Shown here: piece after piece, positions 2,709 to 57,909 of the stretch | Numbering within the stretch: the first letter of the stretch is position 1 | Layout: each line of letters begins with the position of its first letter | From: Candidatus Poribacteria bacterium | GTDB taxonomy: Bacteria > Poribacteria > WGA-4E > JAJDTR01 | Assembly: GCA_965222225.1 (NCBI GenBank) | Contig: CBDCTK010000002.1 | Span: 2,464,001 to 2,528,000, forward strand | Direction of reading: 5' to 3' | DNA: 64,000 nucleotides | Program-made: the position numbers and the translations under genes | Notes under the pieces: generated by a model | The model's input: the letters and a program-made list of their open reading frames with translations, nothing else | Databases searched by the model: none | Told to the model about the DNA's origin: nothing

Positions 2709-3222
2709 GACAAAAAATTTGAGCAGAAAACTGAACAAGAATGGGAGTTGTGGAGGGAAGCAATGACGGTATTCGCTCAACTTACTGATCGAGACAAAAA
2801 TCTAATTAGGACTTACCAGTACCATGACCTTGTATGGTAAAGTATCCGTTTTGTGGAAGCACTCTGACAAAAAAAGTTGCGAGAATGCCCGAAACGGCTT
2901 TTTGAGGCGGGGTTGCCGCGGTTGGCAAAATGTGCGATAGTTGCACATGTGCAGCAGAAAATTCTACACACCTTCCGCCCCGCTGGGGCTATGTCTTTTC
3001 TCAAGGCGTGCGTAAAATGGTAGTCAGCCGTCAGTGAGAAAATCTTGTAATACCTAACCCCCTAAATCCCCTTTATCAGGGGGGTAAGATGTAAGATGTC
3101 GGGAATCGGAGTTCCCTCCTACTGATAAAGGCAGTGGTCAGTAGAACCCTAGCAACGAATTGCCGAAGCCGATTGAGCACGTGAATAGTTAAGAAGGATT
3201 TTCTATGGAAATTCTACCGCAC

Positions 3223-5545: not shown

Positions 5546-5570
5546 GATCCTCCTTTCTAGATTAATACTA

Positions 5571-5714
5571 ATACCATTGCTTTAGAATGATAGTGCATCA
5601 GTGGGGTGAATTAAAGTCGCGATTCGGAGATCGCTCCTACCAAGTGCTAAACTACGCAAGTCCGAAGAAATTAGTTATTCCATTCTATGCACAATTATTC
5701 AAACGAAATGGTAT
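5571..5714. mobile_element. MITE family A copy
   Basis: ATACCATT...AATGGTAT terminal inverted repeats flanked by TA on both sides; contains a GTAG-type palindrome at 5616-5640. Confidence 0.6.
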
Positions 5715-6002
5715 TAGGTGGTCTTGGACATCTGGAGTGCCGCCGTCTCATTAGACGCTTTCCGTGTTTCTCCCGTTGTCCATGATCGAGATGACAGTGT
5801 GTGCTCACATGGGTTAAGAATGGCTAAGACATTCTCGCCCGAGGGAATCAGTTGCCGGAAACGACCACTGTATTTCTCTTCGGTTGAAATAATTCGGAAC
5901 CCCCGGAATGGGAATTCCATTGATCGTCTGTAGCCCAAACCGACGATAGAATTTTACATTTTTCGGACAGTCAGTCTCTACGCAGCAGCGACCGGATGTC
6001 CT

Positions 6003-7307: not shown

Positions 7308-7494
7308 TTTCTATCCTTTCCGTCACGATTGCGGAACGATCTGCCGATAGCGATAAGCTGCATCAGCCGGCGTTGGTTGTTGGCTTCATCGGCTTCTAGT
7401 TTACACCATTTCGTTTGAATAACAGTGCATAGAGTGAAACAACTATTTCGTTAGGACTTGCGCGGTTACGCGGTGTAGCACCCAGTAGGAGCGA

Positions 7495-7551
7495 TCAAGG
7501 GAATGGATAGCGAGTAGGATTTACTATCGCCTTCGCTGTCCGCTCCTTTGA
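7495..7551. mobile_element. 36-bp micro-element (7516-7551, +) next to a half copy (7495-7515, -)
   Basis: Consensus match; sits in a GTAGGAGCGA|TC REP-like sequence. Confidence 0.7.
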
Positions 7552-7766
7552 TCCTTCGCCCGTTCAACATCTCTCTGCTGTTTCGACTTGGTACCGCCGC
7601 AAAGCAACAGAATCGTAGAGGCATATCCTCTTTACGCAACACCTAGCCCGGATTTAGAAGACCATTTTAACCTATACATAACCTCAACCGCAACGGTGTT
7701 ACCAACATCTCCGATTCCATCTCCGCAGTAAACTAACCCGATTCGGAATTCTTGGTTCCTCAAAAC

Positions 7767-7963: not shown

Positions 7964-8213
7964 TTGTCTCTTGTGCGGGTTTGATACTCGACATCTACAA
8001 ATTTGAACGCCCTAAACGGGGTGGATACAGACTAAAAGCACCTAGCTATTCCTAGGTGCTTTTTTTATTGATCGTTTTCTGCTGTCGTCCGGGGTGTTTG
8101 ATGCCAGGGGAAACGCATCTAATTTTTCGGCGAAAATCGCCATATCCCCTATGTCCGCCTCTTGCTCTCTCCATTGTATGTCAGGTCTGGAGCGAGATAG
8201 CGGGAATCTCTAT

Positions 8214-8284
8214 GGGTGTTGTATCAAGATTTACTATCGCCTTCCTTATCCAGTCAGTTGATCCCTCGTTATCCACTCGCTTGA
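8214..8284 (+). mobile_element. nested micro-elements (36-bp copy 8226-8261 inside a 35-bp copy)
   Basis: Removing the inner copy rebuilds a 35-bp consensus-like copy. Confidence 0.75.
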
Positions 8285-8333
8285 TTTCTACAATCAGATG
8301 CGTTTCCCCTGATTTTAACGGTTACATCCCTTG

Positions 8334-8362
8334 TTGACGTCATCAAATAGTCATGATACAAT
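8334..8362 (+). promoter_or_regulatory. sigma70-type promoter with extended -10
   Basis: TTGACG-17 bp-TACAAT, with TGn before the -10 box. Confidence 0.55.
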
Positions 8363-8436
8363 GGGCTTTCGTTAATCGACCAACGCCGCCACAGAAGATG
8401 CCACATTTTCATTCTTGCGTCGAAAGGAGCGTTCTC

Positions 8437-9993
8437 ATGCAAACGCTACGAATTCTCTTCGTTTGTTTACTCCTCGGAATTGGACCGGTGACAGTCATTC
8501 TTGCAAGAGAAGTCAAGATTCTCGACATGGACGGGAAGCTAGGGGATACGTTCGGTTACGTCTCCATTAGCGGGGACACCGCCATCGTTGGGGCAAAGGG
8601 TAACGATGACCCAGTTCAGAATGGTGGTGCGGCCCATATCTTCGTACGCAGCAACGGCGAGGACAATTGGGTACACCATAAAAAACTCGCGCCCCCAGAC
8701 GTTAATAATGAGAGCCAGTTCGGAAAGGCTGTTGGCATCAGCGGAAAGTACGCCATCGGGGGGGCTTTGGAGGACGATTTCAAATTCCAGAATGCGGGCT
8801 CGGCTTATATCTATGAACGTACTGGGAAAAGCTGGCCACAGCGGGAAAAACTCACCGCCAGCGATGCTGCTGGAGGGGACGAATTCGGAACGTCTGTCGC
8901 TATCAGCGGGGACACCGCCATCGTTGGGGCACCGCGGCACGATGGAAATAACGGAAAAGATTCAGGGTCGGTCTATGTTTTCGTAAACATCGGCCGGCGT
9001 TGGAAAGAACAAGCAACCTTTACCGCCAGCGATGTAAGCGCAGGTGACCAGCTCGGAACGTCCGTGGCTATTAGCAGGGACACTGTCATCGTCGGGGCTC
9101 CCGGTAAAGCTGATGCCGGAAGGGAGTCAGGCGCGGCCTATATCTTCGTGCGCAACGGGGAAAAGTGGAATCAGCAGGCAAAACTTACCGCCAGCGATAC
9201 GGCTCAGAGGGACAAATTCGGCATCTCCGTCGCCATCAACAGAAACACCGTCATCGTTGGCGCTCTCGGCAAGGCCGACGCCGGGGCTTCTTCAGGCGCG
9301 GCCTACATCTTCGTGCGCAACGGGGAGAAGTGGAATCAGCAGGCGAAACTTACCGCCGCTGACGGGGCACAACTTGATAAGTTCGGCATCTCCGTCTCAA
9401 TTTTCCATAACACCGCCATCGTTGGGGCTAGTGGGGCAGATGATGGTGAAAAAAATGCTGGCGCAGCGTATTCTTTTCAGCGTACTGGCACATCCTGGGA
9501 GCAGAGGGCAAAGATCGTTCCCAGCGACGCGACAGAAAGTGACCAGTTCGGCATTTCCGTCGCAATTGGGGGGGAATTCGTCATCGTCGGGACTACGGGG
9601 CGTGACACATTTAAGGGCGTGGCATATATCTATCGGTCCATAGAAGATTTTCACCCGGTTGATCCATCTGGGCTGACAGTGACCACGTTGGGACAGGTCA
9701 AGCGGACCGCGCTATATCAAAACTTCCCCAATCCGTTCAATCCCGAGACCTGGTTGCCGTATCGCATAGCTTCCGCTGCACAAGTCACTCTTCGCATCTA
9801 CAATGTCCAGGGGCAGTTTGTCCGTGAGTTGGATCCTGGGCTGCAACAACCGGGAGGGTATTTGAGCAGGGAAACCGCTGCCTATTGGGATGGCACAGAC
9901 CAATTCGGAGACGCCGTTTCCAGTGGTGTCTATTTCTACACGCTCCAAGCCAACACGTTCGAAGCGACCCGGAGAATGGTCATTCTGAAATAG
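8437..9993 (+). CDS. secreted FG-GAP repeat protein with C-terminal FlgD/T9SS-like Ig domain
   Basis: AAAGGAG RBS, signal peptide, about seven FGxSVAISGDTAIVGA repeats, NFPNPFNPETWLPY...SGVYFY tail. Confidence 0.85.
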   Translation: MQTLRILFVCLLLGIGPVTVILAREVKILDMDGKLGDTFGYVSISGDTAIVGAKGNDDPVQNGGAAHIFVRSNGEDNWVHHKKLAPPDVNNESQFGKAVGISGKYAIGGALEDDFKFQNAGSAYIYERTGKSWPQREKLTASDAAGGDEFGTSVAISGDTAIVGAPRHDGNNGKDSGSVYVFVNIGRRWKEQATFTASDVSAGDQLGTSVAISRDTVIVGAPGKADAGRESGAAYIFVRNGEKWNQQAKLTASDTAQRDKFGISVAINRNTVIVGALGKADAGASSGAAYIFVRNGEKWNQQAKLTAADGAQLDKFGISVSIFHNTAIVGASGADDGEKNAGAAYSFQRTGTSWEQRAKIVPSDATESDQFGISVAIGGEFVIVGTTGRDTFKGVAYIYRSIEDFHPVDPSGLTVTTLGQVKRTALYQNFPNPFNPETWLPYRIASAAQVTLRIYNVQGQFVRELDPGLQQPGGYLSRETAAYWDGTDQFGDAVSSGVYFYTLQANTFEATRRMVILK

Positions 9994-10091: not shown

Positions 10092-10220
10092 GAGCCTGTT
10101 TGAATAATCCAAATTCGTCTCTGAGAGTTGCCATTTTACGGGTAAATACTTTCAAAATAGCGTGACTTTGCCCATAAAATGACAAGAAATGACAGTCCCA
10201 CCTACTTTTCAACCAGGCTC
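10092..10220. mobile_element. IS5-like MITE
   Basis: GAGCCTGTTTGAA / TTCAACCAGGCTC terminal inverted repeats flanked by TAA on both sides. Confidence 0.55.
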
Positions 10221-10224
10221 TAAA

Positions 10225-10505
10225 CTCGACTTTGTACATTTGAGCGAGGCAACAAACGGTGTCAATTAAGCGTTGAAGAAAAATGAAGAAGATTTTAACC
10301 ATCTGATCTTTTTGGTTAACCATTGAAAAAGTCTCCAGCGGTTGCTGATATTATGCAACCTGTCCGGATTTCTATCGCAGTCACTATGGGATCTTCTATC
10401 GCCTTCGCTATCCACTCAGTTGATCGTTCGCTTGATCCCCGCTGCGGGTTTGGTGCTTCACGGCTTTCCGCTCACCCAACCGTTGTACGTTTGTACAAAG
10501 TCGAG
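10225..10505. mobile_element. MITE with a perfect 14-bp terminal inverted repeat
   Basis: CTCGACTTTGTACA ... TGTACAAAGTCGAG; no transposase ORF. Confidence 0.55.
10365..10435 (+). mobile_element. nested micro-elements (36-bp copy 10388-10423 inside a 35-bp copy)
   Basis: The outer copy rebuilds exactly (CTAT|TCGTTCGCTTGA) with no duplication. Confidence 0.85.
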
Positions 10506-10891
10506 CTAAAGATATTCTGACATTTCAACCGATTTTTCCGAGCGGATTGACACGACTAGATTTTTCTTTTTTTATCGGTTTTCCTCAAATCCAATAGCCT
10601 AAACTCGGGACAAGTCATCGTCTTGCCCCAAAAAGGCGCGTACGGGAGTTGGAGAATCTTATCCCCTAAAAAGTGTCAAGGTGTCTCCACGGCTAAGATC
10701 GATGATTTTGAAGAATCCGAGAATTTGGGATGACTCATGTCTAAGTGATAGGCAAATTGTCAATTTATTATTTCACACTATTCTCCCTCATTGGACGGAG
10801 CCACTAAAGCTTAGGACCTTTCATCTGTTTCGTGGTTGAAAGCATTTTAACTGGCTAAGGACGTACAACAAACCTAATATTTGGAAATGTC

Positions 10892-17069: not shown

Positions 17070-17371
17070 AGCGTGAGTTCACAAGTTCACGGGCTCATTC
17101 GCGCATCACGTTTCACACAGTAAGGAAATCTAATATTCTGTAAATGCAACTCAGGACCCCCCTACTGGTCTATCAAGTCGATGAGTGTATGCTCTTGTTG
17201 GTTGGCGTTTTACGACGCCACAACGGTTGTCGAAGCGGGTGCGGTAGAAGCCATAGAGCGAATTCCTTTCTTTAGGACAACAGCCGTCTCCTCACCCATT
17301 CTGCAATTCTATAGTCATTGCAATTAATAATTACACATCCTTGCGGGTAATAACATTCTTCTGTACCACAA

Positions 17372-17406
17372 GAGATCTCTATCGCACTCGCTATTCACTC
17401 GCTTGA
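17372..17406 (+). mobile_element. 35-bp micro-element
   Basis: GAGATCTCTATCGCACTCGCTATTCACTCGCTTGA followed by TC. Confidence 0.8.
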
Positions 17407-17732
17407 TCTGTTAGATTGTGGCATGCGCAAACTAACAGTTTGCGCTACGCGGAAGCGTTCGATTCTGTGGGTAATTAGATTCTTCTGTACCACAATTATA
17501 TAACCAATCTATCTATGTGCGAACACTCTCAATTTTTGCATGTCTTAGTGCATATCGTCATCGTTCATTAACATACAATCATAATATGTGTAAATATGAA
17601 TGTAAATGACTAAAAGTTTGGAATCGACACTTTCCTTTTGTGATGTAACGGGTTAGAATCTTCAATGTTCGTCAAAGTTTGATTTCGCCGACATTCATGC
17701 CGAAATTGCCCCTGATAGAGAGGAATCTTTCC

Positions 17733-30591: not shown

Positions 30592-31569
30592 CTAACCCGA
30601 TGTTTCTACGTTTCGAGGCATTCTGTTCGCCTTGGTGAATGCCCAAACGTCTGTGTAAAGGATTTCGCCGTCCCGTCCACCGATAACCCACAGCCTATCA
30701 TCATAGACCAAACACGACGGGGCGTGTCGTGCAGACCACGTCGCTCGCCTATCTGCTTCTTGCCAGTGCCTTCCGTCACGCGAGAACCAGACATCATTCA
30801 GATTCTTCTCATGGGGCATGGTACCCTCAAGGGCGCGCGCCCCTGCAATGACCCACATCTTGTTGTCATACACAACTGAACAGTGAAAACATCGGCCGCT
30901 CCACTGTGCATTCTCCGTGACTTCCTGCCAGTTCTCTCCATCGCTCGAACACCAAACATCATTGTGCTCGATCACGGTATTGTAGAGACCACCGCCGATA
31001 ACCCAAATCTTGTTGTCAAAGACTACGGACGTGTGCATAGCCCGCGGCCCCCAGAGCGCGTTATTCGTGACCTGCTCCCAATTTTTCCCGTCACTCGAAC
31101 ACCACACCTCACTATTATGGGTGAAGTCACTGGCATGGAGCCCACCCATTATCCACATCTTGTCGTCGAATACAACAGCGGTAGCTGCGCCCCGCATACT
31201 CCACGCCGCGTTATTTGTGGCCTGCTCCCAGTTCACACCATCACTCGAATGCCATACATCATTATAAGTATCCAGTTCAAAATTCTTAAACCCCCCTATA
31301 ATCCACATTCTATCATCATACACCACGCAGCAAGCACAGTTTCGTTTGCCCCATGCCGCTGACCCTGTGGCCATGCGCCAGCCTACACCATCACTTGAAT
31401 ACCAAACGTCATTAACGCGTTCCGGAGTCCACCCACCTAGCAACCACATTTTTCCACCGTATACCAGGTGCCCCATAGAGTCACGGCCGCTCCAAGGCGC
31501 CGCATTCGTTATCCGTCCCCAGACAATTTCATCAGCGCGCTCCGCCGAATTCGAAGAATTATTTCTCAT
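30592..31569 (-). CDS. Kelch-like beta-propeller repeat protein
   Basis: Six repeats of WSxR...VVYDDKMWIIGG...NDVWxSSDGxNW. Confidence 0.85.
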   Translation of the reverse strand: MRNNSSNSAERADEIVWGRITNAAPWSGRDSMGHLVYGGKMWLLGGWTPERVNDVWYSSDGVGWRMATGSAAWGKRNCACCVVYDDRMWIIGGFKNFELDTYNDVWHSSDGVNWEQATNNAAWSMRGAATAVVFDDKMWIMGGLHASDFTHNSEVWCSSDGKNWEQVTNNALWGPRAMHTSVVFDNKIWVIGGGLYNTVIEHNDVWCSSDGENWQEVTENAQWSGRCFHCSVVYDNKMWVIAGARALEGTMPHEKNLNDVWFSRDGRHWQEADRRATWSARHAPSCLVYDDRLWVIGGRDGEILYTDVWAFTKANRMPRNVETSG

Positions 31570-33747: not shown

Positions 33748-33821
33748 GCGTTGATTTCCTTTCCAAACTTTCCACCGGTCAAAATAAGCCTTTAGAAAGT
33801 TTTTGTGGTAGGGAAGGATTT

Positions 33822-34001
33822 ATACCATTTCGCTTGAACAATGGTGCATATGATGTCTTAATTGTATCGTTCACTTTCTCCGTAGGCGGGGCATCTTGCC
33901 CCGTCGACTTTGCGCGGAGACAAGGCTTCTTACTCCGCTCCACGCACGTTTCTTTACTTGATCCAGGTAATCAATGCACTTGCATTTTAGAGAAATGGTA
34001 T
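33822..34001. mobile_element. MITE family A copy (reverse orientation)
   Basis: ATACCATTTC...GAAATGGTAT ends; internal GTAGGCGGGGCATCTTGCCCCG palindrome. Confidence 0.6.
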
Positions 34002-34031
34002 TACAAGGCTCAACAGGGCTTGGTCAGCCAT

Positions 34032-37510: not shown

Positions 37511-37549
37511 CGCTTTTTCCCCTAAATCCGCGTAATCTGTTTAATCCGA

Positions 37550-37620
37550 TCAACCGACTGAATAAGGAGTAAGATTTCCTATCGCCTTTCCTATTCGGTC
37601 AGTTGATCGATAGAGATCCC
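37550..37620. mobile_element. nested micro-elements (36-bp + copy 37571-37606 inside a 35-bp - copy)
   Basis: Outer 21 + 14 bp halves rebuild GGGATCTCTATCGAACTCCTTATTCAGTCGGTTGA. Confidence 0.85.
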
Positions 37621-37827
37621 CCTGTTTCTATCAGAATTGATTCGCCACAAACACCGATATCTTATGGCGGGTTGGCAGCGGTCAGCTTTTCATAATTCAC
37701 ACAAGACCTCATCGGGTTCTGGCGACTGTTAGAGATGCCGGTCAATTTGAAATCTTTGTCCTATCGTCCCATAGCTTCATGGGCCAATTTTCCGGGAGAC
37801 GGTTATTGAATCACGGCCAATCGTCGT

Positions 37828-47795: not shown

Positions 47796-48035
47796 TGTTG
47801 TGTCAGTGTTATCCAGACCGTATTGAGTTCAGGGCTGCGATTTCGCATACCGTGCCTGATTCCCGATTGCGTTCATCAAGAACTATACCACCGATGGTCA
47901 CAAGTATCATTCTGCAAGGAGCTCATCAATGAAACAAGTGAGTGGTGAATGGTTAGTGGGCTTTTTCATCCGCTACTCACCGCTCGACCACTCACTTGTC
48001 ATCAAAAGGCTCCATTTACCGCTGTTTAAGGAATA

Positions 48036-48207
48036 ATACCATTTCTTTAGATTCGCAGTGCATTATAGGCATCAATCAAGTCTCTCCAATGCGGGGCAAG
48101 AGGATCTCTATCGCATTCGCTATTCGCTCATTTGATTCCCGCCTACGGAGAATGTGAAGAATATAACCGATACATCATAATGCACTATTATTCAAGCGAA
48201 ATGGAAT
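48036..48207. mobile_element. MITE family A copy carrying a 35-bp micro-element (48101-48135)
   Basis: ATACCATTTC...GAAATGGAAT ends; the micro-element splits the internal palindrome. Confidence 0.65.
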
Positions 48208-48238
48208 AACCATCAGTATCAAAACACCTGCCAATGGC

Positions 48239-49036: not shown

Positions 49037-49471
49037 TTGTTGTTCTCCTTGTATAACATGTTTAGTGAACGATGCCATCTTTCGCGAAATAAAATTGTGC
49101 AATGGTTTTTTCATACTAAATCTTGTAGTATACACCCAAATCACCTAATTCGCGGCTAGATTTCAAGGTCGAGTTTGTCTCAGTAGCGGGACATATAAGG
49201 CATTATATACAAGATTTGGTATGTCCTAATTTGACATTATACAATTCCATTACGCGGAAGGTTAGAACAGTGGTGACTTAGACACAGATTGTCAACAGAA
49301 AATAGTGGACATCGGCGTGTAGTTCGTTTTCTGCACGACGCCCGTTGTTAAATGAATTCCTCAAGCGATCTGTTGCAAGAAAACGCTTAAAGCATTGAAC
49401 CTTGTTCTTCCCTGGCTTGTGAGGCCTACTTCCACAATTCTCACCCCCTTGTTTCCAATTCAACAATAAAC

Positions 49472-49518
49472 AAAAAAGGCGTCTCCGAAGAAGCAATCAA
49501 ACTCCTTCAAAGACGCCT
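49472..49518 (-). terminator. intrinsic terminator-like hairpin
   Basis: AAGGCGTCT...AGACGCC stem followed by T6 on the minus strand. Confidence 0.55.
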
Positions 49519-50456
49519 TATTGACGCGGTCACAAAAAATTCCCTTCGGGGCGAAACTCTCCTGCTCCGAACATTCGGTGGTGGTAGAGAGTTTTGGAAT
49601 TTTTCTAAATGAACTAGATTAGGAGACCATAAAGCCATTTTTCCTCCGGAAAGAACTTTAGGTCATTATACAATCAAGAGATTCGGGCGTTATACATCTT
49701 TTCAGATTCCTTGTCGATCAATTAAAATCGCTAAATCAGTCATTTTCGGCTTTTCAGAGCTAGATGTGGAATGCTGTAACGGCTCGGTATCGGAAGAGCT
49801 CAAAGTCGCGAAATCCAGAGGCCTTGCCGGATCGGGACAGGGCGGCGTTTGATGAGGTTGATTTTATTGTTGATGCCTTCGGCGATGCCGCTGGTCGTGC
49901 GGTGACAATAGTAATTGGCGATTTGGTCAATCCAGTTTGCTAGCGTCCAGCGGAAATTCGAACAGAGTCCCGCTTTCTCAGCTACGAAGGACCACTTCCG
50001 CAGCCACTCGATTGCCTTCTCTTTCGTCAAATTGCACTCAACGATATGCTGCAGACAGTCATTGAGTCAATGAGCCGTCTTGACCAGAGGAGACACCTGA
50101 TAAACGTGTTCCCCGATAGATCGGGGGCTGCTTTTCGGTTAGTCGTCCTGGTTCTTTTGCTGATTCTTTAACTGCTTGAGTTCCCGGTTGACCGCCTGCA
50201 TCACATGAAACCGGTCGGCGGTAATCGTCGCCTAGGGCAACAACTCGGCACACACAGTATCATAGGGACTCCACATGTCGATGACGACTTCTTGAATCTG
50301 TGCGCGCTCGAAAGCCGATAGCTGTTCAAGTCGCGCCCTGAGTTTCTCTTGGGTTCTCGCTTTGAGGAAATCGACGACTTCTTTCATGTCCAGATTCGTC
50401 AGAATCAAGGCGAAGTCCCCTTTTCCCTTCCGCAACGCAATTTCATCAATACCCAA

Positions 50457-50528
50457 CGGAGTCTCTATCGATTAACCGACCGAATAGGGAGGGCAATAGA
50501 TAATCCTGCTCGCTATCCGCTCGGTTGA
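50457..50528. mobile_element. nested micro-elements (36-bp - copy 50472-50507 inside a 36-bp + copy)
   Basis: Removing all 72 bp restores ISL3 LKR|LGIDE. Confidence 0.85.
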
Positions 50529-50813
50529 ACGTTTGAGATTGGCAACGGGGGTTAAGGGGATGCGACATCTCGTTTCGTGGAGGGAGATGCTTTCAATCTG
50601 GCCATAAGTCAACCCTTCAGTGCTGGGTACCGCGCTGATGTTGTTCTCTCGAACTTGGTGGAATATCCAATCTTGGTAACGATGGGTGTAATCGCGTCGC
50701 TCGTCGACAAAGCCGAAGGATTCGGAGAAGGCACCTTCGCAGTCTTCACGGAAGAATCGACGGAAATTAGTCAGCTTGCCACAGTGAGAGCATACCGCCG
50801 TCTGAGATGCCGA

Positions 50814-50849
50814 TCAACTGACTGAATAAGGAAGGCGATAGCAAATCCT
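50814..50849 (-). mobile_element. 36-bp micro-element in the ISL3 remnant
   Basis: Reverse complement AGGATTTGCTATCGCCTTCCTTATTCAGTCAGTTGA followed by TC. Confidence 0.8.
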
Positions 50850-51001
50850 GATAGAGATCCCTTCACTGTCCCATGAAATCCTATCTAGACCAACCTCGGC
50901 AGAAACTACCTGGTAGTTGGGAATGTCGATTCGTTGAATTATAGTCATTGTGATTAAGAATTACACATATGGGATTTACTTGGTTCGGTTTGTAGTAGCA
51001 A

Positions 51002-51036
51002 TCAAGGGAGCGAATAGCGACTGCGATAGAGATCCC
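51002..51036 (-). mobile_element. 35-bp micro-element
   Basis: Reverse complement GGGATCTCTATCGCAGTCGCTATTCGCTCCCTTGA. Confidence 0.8.
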
Positions 51037-51116
51037 TTGTGCTACAAAGGTATGACTTGCCCCATCCCTAAAGGTGTTTCAGAGGCTTTGTAACAACCAG
51101 TAATTCTGATAATGCT

Positions 51117-52415: not shown

Positions 52416-53038
52416 TGGGACCTCCGTGTAGCAAGAGCGTAAAGTTTATGCGAATTATACACGATGCCTTGACGAAATTTAAGGTTTCTCTACATTCCAA
52501 TAGAGCCATCTAATTTTTGGTTCCCTGTCGGTGGTCTAGTGTGAGTCGCGATTCAGCGACCGCGCCGAAGGTTCAACCGATTTAACTTCACCATTAAGTC
52601 AAATTATGGCTAAGAAGTCGCGACCTAGAGCTCGCTCCTACAGAGGACGGGAAATGAACTGCGATACTACAAACCGCACAACGTAAGCCCCGAACGTATA
52701 ATTCTTAGTTTCAATGACTATAGAAATGTACTGCCATCGGAAATTTAGACCATTATCTTAAACAAGATTATGATACAATTTCCAATCGGATTGAAAGGAG
52801 ATTCCGATGGCTAAACGAAGGAAATTCACGCCCCAATTTAAGGCTGAAATTGCTATTGAAGCACTTACCGGTCAAAGTTCACAAGCGGAACTTTGTCGGC
52901 GGCATAACCTCAGCCAAGAGCAACTATCAAAGTGGAAACACCAACTTCTTGACAACGCGGCGACTCTCTTTGAATCCACTGACAAGCAATCTAACGACCA
53001 TAGGGAACGGATTGCTCAACTGGAGCAACTCGTTGGGA

Positions 53039-57601: not shown

Positions 57602-57712
57602 AGATTTTGTCCTGATTGCCGCCTTCAGGATTTCGGACGGCGCCGACCGATTTTCCCGGATGCGTGGGCTTGGATTGCACCGAAGATCGAGTTGTGCGGT
57701 TTGTAGTAGTGA

Positions 57713-57764
57713 TCGCCCCAGTGGATAGCGAAGGTGATAGAAGATCTCAGTGCGATAGCGATTT
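57713..57764 (-). mobile_element. degenerate 36-bp micro-element (57713-57748) plus an adjacent half copy
   Basis: Reverse complement GAGATCTTCTATCACCTTCGCTATCCACTGGGGCGA followed by TC. Confidence 0.65.
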
Positions 57765-57784
57765 TCGTCTGCTCACGAAAAGAA

Positions 57785-57809
57785 GTCGCGACCTAGAGAT
57801 CGCTCCTAC
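57785..57809 (-). repeat. GTAG-type REP-like palindrome (relatives at 3098-3122, 5616-5640, 52617-52641)
   Basis: GTCGCGACCTAGAGATCGCTCCTAC; reads GTAG + hairpin on the minus strand. Confidence 0.65.
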
Positions 57810-57909
57810 AATCGGTTTGTAGTTACAATTTTCAATCGTCAAATCAAGCATTTCCGTTCTTTAGTAATAACACACGCCACATTGTGGCATCTAGCGAAGG
57901 AGGAACAGT

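Follow-up and report, generated by a model that had tools for sequence, protein, structure and literature searches.

The described systems closest to the repeat reported here are the small dispersed repeats (SDRs) of heterocystous cyanobacteria (Nostocaceae), which are approximately 21-27 nt long. Elhai et al. are said to have described SDR1-8 in 2008, and these reportedly occur also within one another and within other repeats. Among the larger systems, elements of the IS200/IS605 family land precisely, 3' of a fixed word of 4-5 nt, and the target word of ISDra2 is TTGAT. IS1397 and ISKpn1, which Tobes and Pareja reportedly found in 2006 to target REP hairpins, are complete insertion sequences of about 1.4 kb that encode a transposase and duplicate their target. 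According to the passages of published reports that deal with them, SDRs have been reported only in Nostocaceae (PMC5861425), and SDR5 of this family is 21 nt long (PMC13756078) and sits between the third and the fourth base of the HIP1 palindrome GCGATCGC (PMC4390886; PMC5861425). REP and REPIN sequences, in the relevant part of one account (Bertels & Rainey 2011, PMC3116915), are short, intergenic and abundant, and are mobilised by RAYT (Y1/HUH) transposases. Our full-text literature searches returned no paper on repeats of Poribacteria, and SDRs did not appear in the review PMC3184786.

We analysed a stretch of 64,000 nucleotides from a Candidatus Poribacteria bacterium (hereafter the window), corresponding to positions 2464001-2528000 of contig C2 of genome G000, which comprises 5.70 Mb in two contigs. 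The window contains members of a dispersed, gene-less family with a unit of 34-37 nt, here called the micro-element. Its consensus is (R)(R)G-GAT[CT]T(N)-CTATCGC-NN-TC-NN-TAT-YC-RN-TC-NN-TTGAT, and the next base is invariably a C; the core reads CTATCGC-NN-TC-NN-TAT-YC-RN-TC-NN-TTGATC and is preceded on its 5' side by (G)GGAT[CT]T, at times with one additional base. The window contained 12 matches to a loose pattern of this core, whereas 0.4 were expected from shuffles. A weight matrix derived from 1096 seed copies, with a core cut-off of at least 14 bits, gave 1256 matches in the genome and none in reversed and complemented controls, and 1003 strictly intact copies were obtained when both ends were required. 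Two classes were distinguished by the distance from the GA to the core: 538 of the intact copies belonged to the 35-class (GGGATCT-), 317 to the 36-class (GGGATCTT-, GGATTTA- and so on) and the class of 148 was ambiguous. The family amounts to 45,112 nt and occupies 0.79% of the genome and 3.7% of its non-ORF DNA, a share which, like the gene positions, rests on a crude ORF map made for this analysis. About 80% of the copies lay outside predicted ORFs and the copies were clustered; peaks of 7, 11, 28, 47 and 55 nt in the gaps between copies were by-products of nests and triple nests and not separate insertions.

The copy that best matched the consensus in the window was a solo one (17372-17408, plus strand, matrix score 48.1), and Rfam covariance models gave no match at E<=1 in the region 17300-17480 that contains it. 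The only terminal inverted repeats in the element were the 6 nt GGGATC ... GATCCC at its ends. A CRISPR-repeat origin was considered but seems unlikely, the copies being dispersed, irregularly spaced and nested in one another. Other repeats are present in the window. Tandem repeats in frame with ORFs, of five to seven units each, were found at 8560-9607 (ORF 8353-9993, period of 165 nt) and at 30676-31400 (ORF 30592-31569, period of 150 nt), and these ORFs probably encode repeat-domain proteins. A second small family, at 5569-5716, 33820-34003 and 48034-48209 (also at 7401-7446), consists of TAATACCATT..GTGCAT with the inverted partner ATGCAC..AATGGTATTA located about 115-150 nt downstream, and looks like a second MITE-like element.

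The preliminary description of this DNA had reported four clean and three truncated nests, in which one micro-element interrupts another, and all of them were recovered in place. In the nest at 10365, the left part of the host copy (10366-10387, plus strand) comprises GGATTT and core columns 0-15 and ends at the loop TAT; it is followed by an inner 36-class copy in the same orientation (10388-10423, plus strand, GGGATCTT...TTGA, with a core at 10396-10425 that scores 44.4), and then by the right part of the host (TCGTTCGCTTGATC; 10424-10437, plus strand). Excision of the 36 nt at 10388-10423 rebuilt a host scoring 45.6 of a possible 48.1.

The nest at 8214, all of it on the plus strand, has three layers. 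A truncated outermost head (GGGAATCT CTAT; 8202-8213) is followed by a middle copy of the 35-class, whose left part, GGGTGTT GTATC (8214-8225), is separated from its right part (8262-8286; host score 30.0) by an inner 36-class copy in the same orientation, inserted after GTATC (8226-8261, AAGATTTA...TTGA), and a T at 8262 replaces the host G. The entire nest is colinear in the relative G005 and is therefore older than the split between G000 and G005. In the nests at 37550 and 50457 the inner copy is reversed and lies directly 3' of the host CTATCG. The first consists of the right part of a minus-strand host (core columns 7-29; 37548-37570), an inner plus-strand copy of the 36-class (AAGATTTC...TTGAT; 37571-37607; host score 40.9), which replaced the host C6, and the left part of the host (GGGGATCT CTATCG on the minus strand; 37608-37621). 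Only flanking pieces of its orthologue were found, in one of five relatives, and these provided no comparable allele. The second consists of the left part of a plus-strand host (GGAGTCT CTATCG; 50458-50470), an inner 36-class copy on the minus strand (50471-50508) and the right part of the host (CTCGCTATCCGCTCGGTTGAAC; 50509-50530, plus strand). It lies within a decayed ISL3-family transposase gene (approximately 49200-51100) that has received at least three micro-element insertions, namely this nest, the truncated nest at 50812 and a solo copy at 51000.

The three truncated nests retain one host half each. At 7493-7553, a minus-strand right host part (7493-7515) adjoins a plus-strand 36-class copy (7516-7553) and the left host part is missing. 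At 50812-50862 (minus strand), a 36-class copy (50812-50849) lies behind the host head GGGATCTCTATC (50850-50861) and the right host part is missing, and at 57711-57766 (minus strand) a degenerate 36-class copy (57711-57748) lies behind the host head GAAAATCG CTATCGCACT (57749-57766).

In order to tabulate nests throughout the genome, each of the 1003 intact copies was removed (small offsets were allowed) and the joined flanks were scored with the core matrix, a host being counted as restored at 20 bits or more; mock excisions were made 150-400 nt away. A host was restored in 309 of the 1003 excisions, in contrast with 31 of the 1003 mock excisions. This nested share of 31%, compared with a non-ORF occupancy of 3.7% (binomial p ~1e-186, or 1e-124 with one nest per flank class), implied that entry into resident copies is about 7-8 times the random expectation. 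When nests with homologous adjacent flanks were grouped together, the 309 nests formed 239 flank classes, of which 214 were singletons, and the nested share was 239 of 933 (26%). The inner copy had the same orientation as its host in 272 nests and the opposite one in 37 (205 and 34 per flank class). Split points were distributed non-uniformly across the host columns (chi-square 1763): column 6 (CTAT^, CTATC^, CTATCG^) held 152 of the 309 nests and 126 of the 239 flank classes, followed by columns 9, 12, 28 and 16 with 38, 32, 20 and 16 nests. Self-targeting of the micro-element is far above chance, as had been suspected from the window. Random landing in neutral non-coding DNA, with nests as a result of crowding, would agree with the clustering of the copies and with their location mostly outside predicted ORFs, but it is refuted by the nested share and by the biases of orientation and site, and we give it practically no weight.

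The junctions fell into recurrent types. With both copies in the same orientation, insertion occurred after CTAT with a net gain of 34 nt (type A; n=56, class 35 in 50), after CTATC with a gain of 36 nt (type B; n=51, class 36 in 42), after CGCAC with 36 nt (type D; n=28, class 36 in 24), after CGCNNT with 34 nt (type E; n=19, class 35 in 15), within the loop TAT^TC with 36 nt (type F; n=14, class 36 in 14) or after the TTGA of the host itself with 36 nt (type G; n=10, inner class mixed). In the opposite orientation, it occurred after CTATCG with 36 nt (type C; n=30, class 36 in 25). In the window, the nest at 10365 was of type F, that at 8214 of type B behind a type-A junction, and that at 37550 of type C. 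The length class is tied to the insertion site and both classes nest: the sites after CTAT and after CGCNNT are entered by class 35, and those after CTATC, after CGCAC and in the loop TAT, as well as the reversed one after CTATCG, by class 36.

The rule that the inner copy always belongs to the 36-bp class held in the window, where 7 of 7 inner copies were of this class (the one at 57711 judged by eye), but not genome-wide, where the inner copy was of class 36 in 143 nests, of class 35 in 127 and other or ambiguous in 39. Class 36 was nevertheless enriched among nested copies, 45% of its copies being nested compared with 24% of those of class 35 (odds ratio 2.66, p 1e-10). The further proposal that the 36-bp class may be younger was unsupported, because 36-class hosts hold 35-class inner copies (42 nests) and solo copies of the 36-class were not nearer the consensus (4.2% mismatches vs 3.0% in the 35-class). 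Both classes act as hosts, with 91 nests of a 36-class copy in a 35-class host, 59 of a 35-class copy in a 35-class host and 38 of a 36-class copy in a 36-class host. At conserved columns, inner copies had 3.4% mismatches and host copies 5.9%, both sets being score-filtered and the comparison possibly biased.

The number of nests would overstate self-targeting if a few composites had been formed once and multiplied by duplication or by larger mobile repeats, such as MITEs or REP clusters. The nest at 10365 lies in the middle of a MITE-like repeat of approximately 290 bp (10220-10511), which has terminal inverted repeats of about 19 nt (CTAAACTCGACTTTGTACA ... TGTACAAAGTCGAGCTAAAG) and many paralogues in G000 and in other genomes of the genus. 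Those at C2:2961537, 5050460 and 5627811 are 86-88% identical to it and carry the same type-F nest, and the nest at 10365 has therefore probably spread, at least in part, as a passenger of this repeat. Diversity was low in type F as a whole (inner signature CTGTCACAG in 8 of 14), identical inner/host pairs in type A numbered 5 against 0.25 expected, and 70 of the 309 nests, that at 10365 among them, had adjacent flanks in common with another nest; these 70 may be passengers of larger repeats. As the main source of nests, however, passengers are refuted by the number of flank classes, most of them singletons, and by the free assortment of inner and host signatures within most types; type B, for example, comprised 29 inner and 47 host signatures with identical pairs in 0 of 51 nests. 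Moreover, the inner cores of the nest at 10365 and its paralogues could be identical (30/30) in spite of a divergence of ~12% in the carrier repeat, and alleles with the host only and with host plus inner copy were observed directly, as described below. On balance we regard multiplication of a few composites as very unlikely. The variable signature was the same in the inner and the host copy in only 2 of the 309 nests, and therefore nests are not local duplications, the origin that the preliminary description had set against insertion.

For the comparison of alleles, 1.6 Mb of G005, the closest relative, was compared with G000 at loci with unique flanks in both directions, which yielded 27 and 28 loci. 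Copies of the micro-element were present or absent at otherwise identical loci of related genomes, and the nest at 50457 formed a series of three states: empty in G009, host only in G005 and host plus inner copy in G000. G009 has three copies of an intact gene for an ISL3 transposase of 396 aa with the empty site CCCAA-AC-GTTTGAG, which is the centre of the palindrome CAAACGTTTG. At the second step, 38 nt in G000 replace the 2 nt CC of the host copy of G005, a net gain of 36 nt. The host copy is laid down first and the inner copy enters later. Net gains in the empty/filled pairs ranged from 33 to 36 nt, and no target-site duplication was found in any of these pairs; instead, 0-4 target bases were replaced. 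The left junction carried one to three purines, often in place of target bases, and clean gains of 34 and 35 nt, without microhomology, were found at C2:3851242 and C2:5374458.

These alleles also decided the origin of the T at the right junction. It had been noticed that the host base next to the inner TTGA departs from the consensus to T, which is correct and is explained by the empty allele: on the strand of the inner copy at 50457, G005 has a G ahead of the conserved C and G000 has a T. Among nine single-step allele pairs, the T pre-existed in two, another base was present in four, two were clean insertions and one was ambiguous. The empty ISL3 site, where an A was replaced on insertion, is a further case. 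Of the two options raised beforehand, a target requirement or a base written by the element, the second is the correct one.

Besides resident copies, the micro-element favours small palindromes and REP hairpins of the GTAG type, which it enters in a fixed orientation. A CTAC was present within 20 nt downstream of 255 of the 651 solo copies, compared with 5.5% of random intergenic 20-mers, and showed a peak at +5 (103 copies). Only 31 copies had GTAG there; many solo copies therefore lie at a fixed place and in a fixed orientation inside GTAG-tagged REP hairpins. The CTAC is located outside the unit, 5 nt downstream, and no tag occurs inside it. Empty alleles likewise showed REP-hairpin targets, GGTGCGG-TTAGAAA-CCGCACC and others. 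In the window, GTAG/CTAC-tagged hairpins of the REP type (AAGTCGCGA...TCGCTCCTAC), favoured landing sites of the micro-element, are found at 52612-52642, 57780-57810, 5611-5641 and 3093-3123. Perfect flanking stems of at least 6 bp were found at 85 of the 651 solo copies, compared with 29 in a permuted control, and one REP family had been entered in its 5' arm (C2:5374458). Entry into a hairpin loop was rejected as a general rule on these two grounds and is a tendency. At one orthologous REP loop (C2:5150534-5150626), the resident micro-elements of G000 and G005 differ at several variable positions and an extra nested copy is present in one of the two genomes, a possible sign that resident copies are turned over or overwritten.

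The orientation of the copies had no link with the direction of the flanking genes (119:181 in ++ and 101:118 in -- contexts) and followed the local GC skew, 64% of the copies being on the plus strand where the skew was positive and 29% where it was negative (63% and 31% per 2-kb cluster). REP-borne, other solo and nested copies all showed this bias. Reading the GC skew as replication direction is only an assumption, because the skew is patchy in this assembly. Along contig C2 (5.6 Mb) it flips its sign many times without forming two arms, which suggests many inversions or assembly joins, and the gene strand tracks it weakly (60% vs 50%).

Four pairs of positions in the element covary, with Watson-Crick combinations in 708, 912, 932 and 838 of the 1003 intact copies against 302, 387, 354 and 489 expected, and 298 different signatures among these copies. 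Inner copies had 3.52 intact pairs of the four and host copies 2.99, both sets being score-filtered with a possible bias. Mismatches at the pairs were A.C in 436 cases vs G.T in 61, and therefore pairing on the bottom strand is favoured, whereas it is the top strand that lies on the G-rich strand. DNA folding, however, predicted no stable hairpin: energies ranged from -0.5 to -4 kcal/mol, weaker than those of shuffles (z +0.8 to +1.35), and single copies and the 10365 nest did no better than shuffles, so that any fold would be protein-helped or transient. With palindromes and REP hairpins as favoured targets and no stable hairpin in the element, targeting may be guided by homology or by structure.

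Spread through RNA was considered in view of this pairing. A transcribed element, folded as RNA with its G.U-tolerant bottom strand, would be reverse-transcribed or reverse-spliced into structured targets; the mismatches at the paired positions would be G.U on a bottom-strand transcript, and the additional purines found at one of the junctions resemble untemplated additions. This explanation seems to us highly improbable, as the orientation of the copies is unrelated to that of the flanking genes and follows GC skew, no Rfam match was obtained and the fold, calculated with DNA parameters, is too weak for a ribozyme.

Of 176 genomes of the phylum, 21 contained the core (<=2 mismatches); the backward control gave 0 throughout. 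All ten genomes of the genus of the window had 679-1434 copies each and all four genomes of a second genus, from another family, had 225-243 each; one further genome had 21 and a few had 1-4. When one genome per species was scanned for exact matches, at least 129 stretches were returned, and among the matches listed 80 of 80 belonged to Candidatus Poribacteria, the only group from which the element is known so far. The junction pattern of nests had 449 occurrences in G001 (2 in the control), and the genomes of the second genus had 6-26, mostly of type D. One of the latter, G021, contains a tandem array (C1:4109012-4109905) with a spacing of 145 nt and a type-D junction in each unit (CTATCGCAC, junction, GGGATT.ACTATCGC). 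A cyanobacterial origin or a link with HIP1 was considered and rejected, as HIP1 showed no enrichment (120 copies in 5.7 Mb).

Taken together, the excision test, the alleles and the junctions indicate that the nests are likely to have arisen by insertion, one after another, of a tiny mobile element without genes. We propose that it would move as single-stranded DNA during replication and that an enzyme acting in trans would read a protein-stabilised fold of the element, whose four variable pairs covary. The element itself supplies its terminal T and the one to three purines on the left, and 0-4 target bases are lost. A Y1/HUH (RAYT-like) transposase is our first guess for this enzyme, to which we give rather less than an even chance, and something novel is equally plausible. 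The variable 5' flanks (CTAT, CTATC, CGCAC, TAT, REP loops and others) and the junctions that differ by 1-4 nt speak against the Y1 reading. The weak predicted folding, the mismatches that favour pairing of the bottom strand, the patchy GC skew and the 70 nests with shared flanks also count against the proposal. Y1_Tnp genes gave three matches in G000 and were present in all element-rich genomes and in most element-free ones too; since they occur in 149 of the 176 genomes and the element in 21, they do not single out its carriers and were discarded as a discriminating marker. A parent element with the same ends was sought in G000 among orphan halves, but these did not recur at any particular distance in the range of 100-6000 nt (26 pairs, evenly spread), and no such parent was found.

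The replacement of 0-4 bases, the variable, purine-rich left junction and the missing target duplication could also be produced by template switching, a copying process similar to gene conversion and without a dedicated transposase, in which a nascent strand at a palindrome or at a resident copy would switch to another copy of the element and return at a microhomology, overwriting a few target bases. The preference for palindromes, REP hairpins and resident copies, the bias that tracks GC skew, the different resident copies of G000 and G005 at the orthologous REP loop and an empty site at C2:2540823 that had TTGACC, similar to the end of the element, are all in keeping with such copying. Across hundreds of events, however, the ends of the unit hardly vary (within 2 nt) and the flanks of the donor were never co-copied, and the clean insertions of 34 and 35 nt lacked microhomology. 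The separate sites of the two length classes look like recognition and not accident, and the presence of approximately 1000 copies per genome in one genus and of none in most relatives argues for a specific agent. We therefore consider template switching unlikely, and insertion of a mobile element remains our preferred interpretation.

A more speculative form of the insertion model, which we put forward with considerable doubt, is that the micro-element represents mobile DNA of a new kind, a ~35-nt unit written into single-stranded palindromic targets by replacement and not by cut-and-paste, the variable nucleotides of which unit (left-end class and four covarying pairs) would help to pick the landing site. 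The hosts of type D carried the signature AC..GT/GT..AC in 10 of 28 nests. Were the element self-guided in this way, the class-specific host columns and the demands of some types on the host signature would be explained, and it would be a minimal self-targeting element that is programmable and depends on an enzyme yet to be discovered.

Few known mobile DNAs are as small or as self-targeting as the micro-element. A genus with approximately 700-1400 copies per genome and hundreds of independent nests at a few exact columns is a rich data set, in which two classes with differing sites, three-state alleles and overwritten bases constrain the mechanism and should help to find the enzyme. The element breaks genes, such as that of the ISL3 transposase, remodels REP hairpins and inflates intergenic DNA, and it will complicate the assembly of sponge-symbiont genomes and the annotation of their repeats.

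Compared with known systems, the micro-element differs from MITEs in having no target duplication and no parent in G000. It shares with IS1397 and ISKpn1 the preference for palindromic extragenic repeats as landing sites, but it is a unit of 34-37 nt without a gene. Like the IS200/IS605 elements IS608 and ISDra2, it makes no target duplication and shows a strand bias, tied here to GC skew as a proxy for replication, and the target word of ISDra2 is the pentamer that ends the micro-element; in contrast with this family, its 5' flank is variable, its junctions are ragged by 1-4 nt and it removes target bases. REP and REPIN sequences, the next nearest systems after the SDRs, resemble it in being short, intergenic, abundant, gene-less and presumably moved in trans, with structure-linked covariation, and G000 has both GTAG-tagged REP hairpins and Y1_Tnp genes; the micro-element, however, lacks a GTAG tag of its own, a stable GC-rich hairpin and inverted doublets, and is a guest inside REP hairpins. 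The SDRs, of which SDR1-8 were compared by description only, belong to another phylum, and the micro-element of 34-37 nt differs from them in size; they are nevertheless similarly very small, gene-less and dispersed, with precise insertion, and the micro-element shows presence/absence polymorphism. Mobile elements of 34-37 nt are barely documented, and the SDRs of Nostoc are their sole close precedent.
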